Shown here piece by piece: positions 10,277 through 11,332 of a stretch of 64,000 nt of DNA. The DNA is taken from the sequence record PQ249395; one strand, written 5' to 3'. The stretch comes from Escherichia phage Pu-Krd-SF1. The position numbers and the translations under genes are program-made. Each line of letters opens with the position of its first letter. Positions within the stretch are counted from its first letter, which is position 1. Under the pieces are notes generated by a model that worked only from the letters and a program-made list of their open reading frames with translations, searched no databases and had not been told where the DNA came from.

Positions 10277-10299
10277 TTTCAAAATTTTTTCACAAAACG

Positions 10300-10329
10300 G
10301 TTTACAAGCATAAAGCTTTATGGTACTAT
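10300..10329 (+). promoter_or_regulatory. T4-type early promoter (repeated promoter-leader cassette)
   Basis: GTTTACAAG ... TGGTACTATACAACTATCAA; near-identical copies at 11739 and 38803. Confidence 0.6.
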
Positions 10330-10363
10330 ACAACTATCAACTAATACGGATTTGGAGAATAAA

Positions 10364-11332
10364 ATGAAAACTGTAACTATCAATAAGGGTATCTACTTCG
10401 GTAAAGAAATCTCTGGAACTTTTGAGCTCTTAGGCGAATGGTTCCCAGATAATGCTCCGGTAGATGCACAAGGAGATGGTAAAGTTTTTGTTGAAATTGA
10501 CGGTAAACGTCGCGGTGTTTGGGTTTACAAATCAGATATTTCATATGATGGTGTAAAAGTTGAAGAAGTTAAAGAATCGTATGAAGATATGAAAACCCGC
10601 ATTAATAAAAGATTTAACGTTATGGGAATGATGACGAACGGTATTATTAATGGAAATATTCGTTCATTAATTATCTCTGGCGCAGCAGGTATTGGTAAAA
10701 CGTATTCTTTAGATAAAGCTTTAAATAAAGCAAATGATATTGGATACATTGAATATAAAAGCATTAATGGTAAAATCTCTGGTATTGGTCTTTATGAGCA
10801 GCTTTGGAATAATCGTGAAGAGAATTCTGTCCTTTTGATTGATGATGTGGATGTTTTCTCTGATATGGACATTCTTAATCTTCTGAAAGCTGCTCTGGAC
10901 ACTGGAGAGACCCGTAAAGTCTGCTGGAGCACTGCATCTTCTTACTTAGAAGAAAAAGGCATTGACCGTGAGTTTGAATTTAAAGGAACGATTGTTTTTA
11001 TCACAAACGTTGACATTGACCGCGAATTAGACCGTGGTACTAAACTTGCTCCACACTTACAAGCATTAGTGTCCCGCTCAGTTTATTTGGATTTGGGTGT
11101 TCACACTAATGAAGAAATTATGGTCAGGGTTGAAGATGTTATTCTTTCAACTGACATGATGCAAAAGCGCGGTCTTTCTGATGAAGAAACTTATAAAGCA
11201 TTATCATGGATGAAAGTTAATGTTAATCGTTTACGCAATGTTTCACTGCGTACTGCTCTTTATCTTGCTGACTTTATTATGACCGACAAAAACGGTTGGG
11301 AAGAAATTGCTGAGGTTACTCTTCTGAAATAA
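10364..11332 (+). CDS. P-loop ATPase (AAA-like), nrdC.10 position
   Basis: ATG 10364 with GGAGAA RBS; Walker A SGAAGIGKT and Walker B VLLIDDVD; 322 aa. Confidence 0.65.
   Translation: MKTVTINKGIYFGKEISGTFELLGEWFPDNAPVDAQGDGKVFVEIDGKRRGVWVYKSDISYDGVKVEEVKESYEDMKTRINKRFNVMGMMTNGIINGNIRSLIISGAAGIGKTYSLDKALNKANDIGYIEYKSINGKISGIGLYEQLWNNREENSVLLIDDVDVFSDMDILNLLKAALDTGETRKVCWSTASSYLEEKGIDREFEFKGTIVFITNVDIDRELDRGTKLAPHLQALVSRSVYLDLGVHTNEEIMVRVEDVILSTDMMQKRGLSDEETYKALSWMKVNVNRLRNVSLRTALYLADFIMTDKNGWEEIAEVTLLK

Follow-up and report, generated by a model that had tools for sequence, protein, structure and literature searches.

Related promoter-leader units occupy four sites on one strand of Escherichia phage Pu-Krd-SF1 DNA, and they very probably form one family of T4-type immediate-early cassettes that also act as homology patches for gene shuffling, as in the PeSL mechanism. 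We analysed a stretch of 64,000 nt of this phage (sequence record PQ249395), hereafter called the window. The window belongs to Tequatrovirus and is ∼96% identical to T4, and some of its segments match Escherichia phages Pu-Krd-SF4 and SF6 at 100% identity. Its + strand corresponds to the counter-clockwise, early-transcribed strand of T4, and all four copies have orthologous sequences at equal positions in T4 itself.

Taken by itself, each unit looks like a full cassette for early expression, with an UP element, a −35 GTTTAC, TGn, a −10 TACTAT, an open leader, GGAG and ATGAAA. Block by block, the cassettes consist of an optional upstream hairpin, an A/T-rich UP element, GTTTAC as −35, a spacer that varies between copies, an invariant 20-mer, an unstructured GGAG leader and ATGAAA. 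Host sigma-70 RNA polymerase would fire these cassettes right after infection, the open leader would allow efficient translation, and GGAGAATAAAA in copies 1 and 4, which fits the strong RegB/S1 consensus, would bring about quick shut-off of the message. The same 20–35 bp blocks lie in front of unrelated, mostly dispensable genes, so that they very probably also serve as patches of homology at which recombination inserts, deletes or replaces whole genes and swaps blocks between cassettes, be it via mini-circles or via homologous or illegitimate exchange.

Anatomy of the four cassettes

The coordinates of the four copies and of the associated promoters and terminators are given in Table 1. An earlier note on this DNA had described a ∼95-bp module occurring almost identically at two loci. 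This module is real, with 78 of 95 positions identical between copies 1 and 2, although copy 2 starts 2 nt away from where it had been placed (38783–38877). The divergence between these two copies is concentrated in the 12–15 nt spacer block, in which 6 of 15 positions agree. The other blocks match at 18/19 (UP element), 6/6 (−35), 20/20 (the 20-mer covering TGn, −10 and the initial transcribed region) and 27/30 positions (leader through ATGAAAA). The two partial copies of the earlier note are likewise real: copy 3 agrees with copy 2 at 40 of 41 positions from the −35 through the 20-mer, and copy 4 has in common the UP element, the 20-mer with three mismatches and the GGAGAATAAAATG end. In the window, the 20-mer, TGGTACTATACAACTATCAA, has three exact occurrences and a fourth with three mismatches, compared with 0.02 occurrences in shuffled sequence. 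With the exception of the terminator detail described below, the repeat family is real and far above chance.

Table 1. Positions of the cassette copies, their parts, neighbouring terminators and a further promoter pair in the window
Feature	Coordinates	Strand	Remarks
Copy 1	10281–10375	+	between nrdC.11 and nrdC.10; nrdC.10 promoter-leader (T4 annotation)
Copy 1, UP element	10281–10298	+	A/T-rich, AAAATTTTTTCACAAAAC; 18/19 match to copy 2
Copy 1, core promoter	10300–10340	+	TTTACA-17-TACTAT with TG; exact match to 20-mer
Copy 1, −35 GTTTAC	10300–10305	+	followed by locus-specific spacer
Copy 1, TGn and −10 TACTAT	10321–10329	+	followed by initial transcribed ACAACTATCAA, to 10340
Copy 1, leader	10341–10366	+	SD/RegB-type site GGAGAATAAAA at 10354–10364; nrdC.10 start codon at 10364–10366
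Copy 2	∼38783–38877	+	between gene 43 and imm.1; imm.1 promoter-leader (T4 annotation)
Copy 2, imm.1 promoter and leader	38783–38868	+	ATG at 38866
Copy 2, UP element	38783–38800	+	
Copy 2, −35	38802–38807	+	
Copy 2, 20-mer	38823–38842	+	
Copy 3	11731–11800	+	between nrdC.9 and nrdC.8; nrdC.8 promoter-leader (T4 annotation)
Copy 3, nrdC.8 promoter and leader	11739–11799	+	ATG at 11797
Copy 3, −35	11739–11744	+	followed by spacer aagactgttcctctg
Copy 3, 20-mer	11760–11779	+	
Copy 4	∼57831–57931	+	between motB and cef; fronts 89-aa ORF (T4 annotation)
Copy 4, motB-cef promoter and leader	57831–57925	+	ATG at 57923, 89-aa ORF
Copy 4, UP element	57831–57848	+	
Copy 4, −35 variant ATATAC	57850–57855	+	
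Copy 4, 20-mer	57871–57890	+	three mismatches; longer leader with 3′ end GGAGAATAAAA at 57913–57923
nrdC.11 intrinsic terminator (copy 1 stem-loop)	10250–10276	+	8-bp GC-rich stem, UUCG loop, T-run
Terminator hairpin after gene 43	38697–38718	+	87 nt upstream of copy 2 −35
Early promoter core	14726–14757	+	31/32 match to 61543–61574; flanks unrelated
Early promoter core	61543–61574	+	partner of 14726–14757

The units show the sequence features of T4 early (Pe) promoters, namely GTTTAC, an A-rich UP element, TGn, a −10 and a position 5′ of an early-strand gene. GGAG is located 6–7 nt 5′ of the ATG in all four copies, and the UP element of copies 1, 2 and 4 contains AAAATTTTTTCA(C/T)AAAAC. Copy 3 begins directly 3′ of the nrdC.9 stop codon; its UP element is weak, it has no hairpin, and its short leader carries GGAGG. 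Because its spacer matches the promoter at 11739 (17 of 18 positions in common) and its UP element and leader match the promoter at 10300, copy 2 is a mosaic, in which a spacer of the nrdC.8 type is joined to flanks of the nrdC.10 type, including the leader ATACGGATTTGGAGAATGAA. The T4 early promoters of nrdC.10, nrdC.8, imm.1 and motB-cef occupy the orthologous positions and have the same UP/−35 GTTTAC/TGn/−10 architecture. They differ from those of the window by few substitutions, except that the T4 spacer at copy 2 is aagactgttcttcca rather than nrdC.8-type and that the T4 leader there has three extra bases.

According to the earlier note, each copy follows a terminator hairpin. This applies to copy 1, whose adjoining stem-loop (10250–10269; RNA fold −17.5 kcal/mol, z = −3.6) ends 30 nt 5′ of the −35, but not to copies 2, 3 and 4. 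The hairpin after gene 43 (38697–38714), which precedes the −35 of copy 2 by 87 nt, folds with −12 kcal/mol (z = −2.8), and no hairpin was found within 130 nt of copies 3 and 4 or of the promoters at 14728 and 61545. Globally, five of the 18 early promoters of the window have a hairpin within this distance. Near-identical terminator hairpins, (A)AGGGCTTCGGCCCTTT, were also observed at four intergenic sites (25003–25033, 28380–28410, 33960–33990 and 59653–59683).

Predicted folds of all four leader RNAs were no more stable than those of shuffled sequence (z from +0.1 to +1.3), and we therefore rejected the idea of a structured regulatory leader. A known RNA family in the leader was likewise rejected, with zero Rfam matches across the window. 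Strong RegB/S1 cleavage sites follow the consensus GG*AGRAYARAA (PMC3014915), and exact matches to GGAGRAYARAA occur at just two places in the 64 kb of the window, the leaders of copies 1 and 4. These two resemble the strong T4 sites in that the 11-nt consensus is exact, unpaired and in the SD position, whereas copy 2 (one mismatch) and copy 3 (no fit) differ from them. Two of the leaders thus double as a consensus RegB site, and the cassette may unite signals for transcription, translation and mRNA shut-off. The conservation of the leader may in part stem from this combination of an SD and a predicted RegB shut-off site.

The four proteins encoded downstream are mutually unrelated, and therefore the repeat does not extend beyond the start codon. 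NrdC.10 gave weak AAA-ATPase matches, Imm.1 is a DUF5481 protein with a lipoprotein-like N-terminus, and no family was matched by NrdC.8 or the 89-aa ORF. A segmental duplication of gene plus promoter was rejected because the downstream proteins are unrelated.

Gene content and block exchange at the cassette loci

Public genomes provide before-and-after examples of gene exchange, above all T2 versus T4 and the window phage at nrdC.11/nrdC.10. In T2, an extra gene (T2_097) lies between two units, each composed of hairpin, T-tail, UP element and promoter. At the same site, the window and T4 have a single chimeric unit that combines the left hairpin of T2 with its right promoter. The two T2 units have ∼33 bp in common (CCCTTTTTTATTTCAAAAATTTTTCACAAA, T-tail/UP), which is the only possible crossover zone, and a two-unit and a chimeric single-unit state related by a crossover in this shared stretch are what exchange between units predicts.

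The same locus has been occupied in other ways. Other genes directly follow the 20-mer or its TATCAA end in phiD1 (g099), CM8 (two genes), EH2 and two IMG/VR phages, and in these phages nrdC.10 is found behind a different early promoter, with GGAGAAyAAAATG unchanged. In total, nrdC.11/nrdC.10 has at least five alternative contents (empty, T2_097, phiD1 g099, the CM8 two-gene insert and the L020/L027 insert). At gene 43/imm.1, T2, phiD1 and four IMG/VR phages carry an added gene of 233–257 bp in the interval between cassette and imm.1; two different genes are inserted there among the phages, and ATGAAAAT is present at both junctions. At the copy 3 locus, we saw just a nearby homing-endonuclease insertion among relatives. 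The comparison with other T4-like genomes that the earlier note had proposed therefore revealed synteny breakpoints at copies 1 and 2, and the genes gained, lost and swapped there in relatives support its suggestion that the cassettes are substrates for modular recombination.

Exchange is also visible within the cassettes. A BLAST search with the 100-bp module returned 553 phage records, nearly all of them Tequatrovirus, with typically 6–8 places per genome. When IMG/VR was scanned for the exact 20-mer, single genomes had as many as six copies. At least eight different genes follow these copies, in which a few alternative spacers and leaders are combined with a constant UP element and 20-mer. 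For instance, one IMG/VR phage (L025) has an nrdC.8-type cassette in a locus otherwise without similarity to the window. Cassettes at the imm.1 locus differ by whole blocks among phages, and the one in T2 is identical to the nrdC.8 cassette of the window from −35 to ATG. Spacer and leader blocks can be unlike at orthologous loci and match at other loci; judged by sequence, they are exchanged between loci.

A bolder reading, which we regard as possible but rather unlikely, is that the cassettes consist of independently exchanging blocks, with the 20-mer and the GGAGAAyAAAATG end as preferred crossovers and the site downstream of nrdC.11 as an integron-like capture locus. If this were true, any captured gene would automatically come under a full burst-type programme of early expression, with a strong promoter together with an open ribosome-binding site and a site for RegB shut-off.

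We compared the window with T4T, T2 and phiD1 and obtained 30 unique indel events in a span containing 15 early-promoter cassettes. Five of the 30 had boundaries inside cassettes, against 1.44 expected (P ∼0.012 under a uniform null that ignores gene boundaries), and four of these five fell at members of the 20-mer/leader family. The remaining 25 events were away from cassettes, and several of them are homing-endonuclease-like ORFs; several window-specific insertions encode homing-endonuclease-like proteins of the NUMOD3 type. Four ORFs of ∼270–285 aa (19190–20011, 21812–22642, 30026–30880 and 48175–49026), which are absent from T4, T2 and phiD1, account for several of the largest indels. Two of these, with DNA-binding motifs of the NUMOD3 or I-TevI type, are probably homing endonucleases; Pfam gave no match for the remaining two. 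At 47621–47642, ∼900 bp of T4 (covering dam) and ∼1.4 kb of T2 (dam and T2_032) are missing from the window phage, which appears to be without a Dam methyltransferase gene at the usual position.

One of the counted boundaries belongs to a deletion in T4 that adjoins copy 4. This deletion is included in the breakpoint test, yet it is no evidence for exchange between cassettes: T4 has lost 200 bp within the ORF at an AAAA(T)T microhomology, and we rejected copy 4 as a cassette-mediated breakpoint relative to T4. The 89-aa ORF (57923–58193) is intact in the window, T2 (T2_009) and phiD1 (g009), whereas in T4 the same promoter is followed by what remains of it, a short ORF. Indels between nrdC.10 and nrdC.9 (11313–11348) were observed as well. 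In Salmonella phage pSe_SNUABM_01 the two genes are separated by a putative endonuclease gene of 720 bp, and L027 (IMG/VR) has an insertion of ∼730 bp at this point. This indel is probably driven by a homing endonuclease, near the cassettes yet independent of them.

These data bear on the explanation that the family is an old duplication kept by functional constraint only (promoter strength, translation, RegB/S1), with no causal role in shuffling and with indels that simply favour gene boundaries. The fit of GGAGAATAAAA to the strong RegB consensus and the unstructured leaders would agree with it, as would those junctions of other indels in the window that lie at gene starts or short non-promoter repeats (e.g. 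55468–55481 and 46172–46220). Furthermore, the simplest product predicted for an exchange between copies 1 and 3 (1,439 bp apart), a deletion with loss of nrdC.10–nrdC.9, was absent from 50,697 phage records when we searched with a synthetic junction query. Two records at first seemed to match farther upstream, but EH2 was rejected as a partial match to this deletion, as it has an ordinary nrdC.8 promoter. However, the two T2 units and their single chimeric counterpart, with the 33-bp T-tail/UP crossover, fit unit exchange, spacer and leader blocks differ at orthologous loci and match elsewhere, and mini-circles with −10-to-ATG crossovers have been demonstrated experimentally in RB49 (PMC2839356). 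We therefore consider constraint alone improbable and favour cassettes that also serve as homology patches.

Early promoters of the window

T4 early promoters consist of UP, −35, TGn and −10 elements with extra consensus regions beyond −35 and −10 (PMC2988021), and GTTTAC is located at −36 to −31 (PMC1524935). The similarity could in principle amount to this extended consensus and nothing else, having arisen by convergence for strength without ancestry or exchange. On the + strand of the window, we identified 18 credible early promoters, all of the form GTTTAC-N18-TAnnnT, as convergence would have it, and aligned each of them in register with every other (153 pairs). The pair 10300/38802 was the top outlier of the 153, with an identity of 0.70 in the UP element (mean of all pairs 0.34, sd 0.09) and of 0.93 in the leader (mean 0.34, sd 0.12). 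Typical pairs were 34–40% identical in UP element, spacer and leader, compared with 70–94% for pairs within the family. The earlier note had named this comparison in advance as a check, and had named a similarity limited to the promoter consensus as the outcome that would speak against it. Instead, the identity runs through the leader to the start codon, and the 14 other early promoters have unrelated leaders and spacers, which means that the similarity exceeds the promoter consensus. Convergence would also leave unexplained that non-consensus spacers agree at 17 of 18 and leaders at 27 of 30 positions across loci, and that identical blocks are recombined anew in other phages, and we regard it as very unlikely.

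Least probable of all is that a dedicated site-specific recombinase or nuclease targets the 20-mer, which would then be an integron-like capture site and not a substrate of general homologous recombination: the 20-mer is exactly conserved between variable flanks, several independent insertions start directly after it and Arbiol and Comeau left the possibility open, but its conservation is explained by its coincidence with TGn, −10 and the start region, other junctions lie elsewhere (the T2 UP/T-tail and ATGAAAAT at imm.1), and no recombinase is linked to the cassette sites.

Not every similar promoter pair is an extended cassette. The promoters at 14728 and 61545 indeed differ at just one of 32 positions, as had been noted before, and their similarity is confined to −35, spacer and −10, so that we rejected them as a further cassette. 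Two more early promoters, at 7669–7705 and 44735–44771, are 86% identical over 37 nt, spacer included. In both, an inverted repeat spans the −10 (caagg/caaga ... TATAGT ... tcttg), and a similar repeat flanks the −10 of the promoter at 57263 (gggacc...ggtccc).

Comparison with PeSLs and T-even gene starts

The PeSL phenomenon in T4-like phages has already been described (Arbiol 2010; Comeau 2014 for T4/PST). PeSLs were first reported in RB49 and phi1, where mini-circles and −10-to-ATG crossovers were demonstrated (Arbiol 2010, PMC2839356), and later in the pairs T4/PST and KVP40/nt-1, with the T4/PST consensus TTTACW-N17-TAYWAT (Comeau 2014, PMC4122927). The cassette promoters fit this consensus: copies 1–3 have TTTACA-17-TACTAT with TG upstream, and copy 4 has TATACA-17-TACTAT, with one mismatch in the −35. 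Like PeSLs, the cassettes are composites of an AT-rich region, a sigma-70-type early promoter, SD and ATG, to which copy 1 adds a terminator stem-loop; they are dispersed in variable regions adjoining dispensable ORFs, and the junctions of indels and replacements lie inside the element. In both cases, where one phage has a gene between two units, a relative has a single chimeric unit, and the arrangement around T2_097 has the two-unit versus single-unit topology drawn for RB49 ORF192 and phi1 (Arbiol 2010, PMC2839356).

The cassettes differ from PeSLs in the stem-loop, which adjoins copy 1 alone, is 87 nt upstream of the −35 at copy 2 and is missing from copies 3 and 4. They also form a sub-family, with an exact 20-mer and a common leader, that is narrower than PeSLs as generally defined, and PeSL mini-circles have been seen in RB49, whereas the cassettes of the window are known from their sequence. 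An AT-rich region 5′ of the −35, as well as SD and start codon at the 3′ end, are present, and junctions in the element beside variable ORFs were found at the loci of copies 1 and 2. On these sequence features, copy 1 would qualify as a PeSL in every respect and copy 2 loosely, and copies 3 and 4 would be promoter-leader units without a stem-loop. A strict stem-loop plus promoter PeSL is copy 1 only; 'degraded' or half PeSLs that are without one part have also been accepted (Comeau 2014, PMC4122927).

The PeSL repeats of Krisch and colleagues are hence recognisable from raw sequence in an ordinary T4 relative. This is mainly confirmation and leaves current understanding unchanged, with some local detail added: cassettes that are mosaic block by block, a clean example of two units in T2 against one chimera in T4, a multi-allelic insertion site downstream of nrdC.11 and two leaders that fit the strong RegB consensus. 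The cassettes mark sites at which T-even phages acquire and tolerate accessory genes, a help in phage engineering and in the interpretation of pan-genome variation.

A related case, as cited in PMC4122927, is that of the T-even internal-protein genes, which shuffle at conserved gene-start sequences (Repoila et al. 1994). As outlined there, it is similar in that a conserved 5′ block is followed by unrelated coding sequences, which replace one another. It differs in that this block is coding and specifies a capsid-targeting N-terminus, whereas the cassettes described here comprise promoter and leader and end at the start codon. In the window, three gene starts (315–348, 642–675 and 46215–46248) share AAAATGAAAACATATCAAGAATTTAT, which encodes MKTYQEFI..., the type of conserved N-terminal capsid-targeting sequence found in T4 internal proteins. 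These gene starts look like a coding-sequence analogue of promoter-cassette shuffling. An 861-bp insertion in phiD1 has a 49-bp junction repeat at 46172–46220, which overlaps the third AAAATGAAAACATATCAAGAATTTAT copy.
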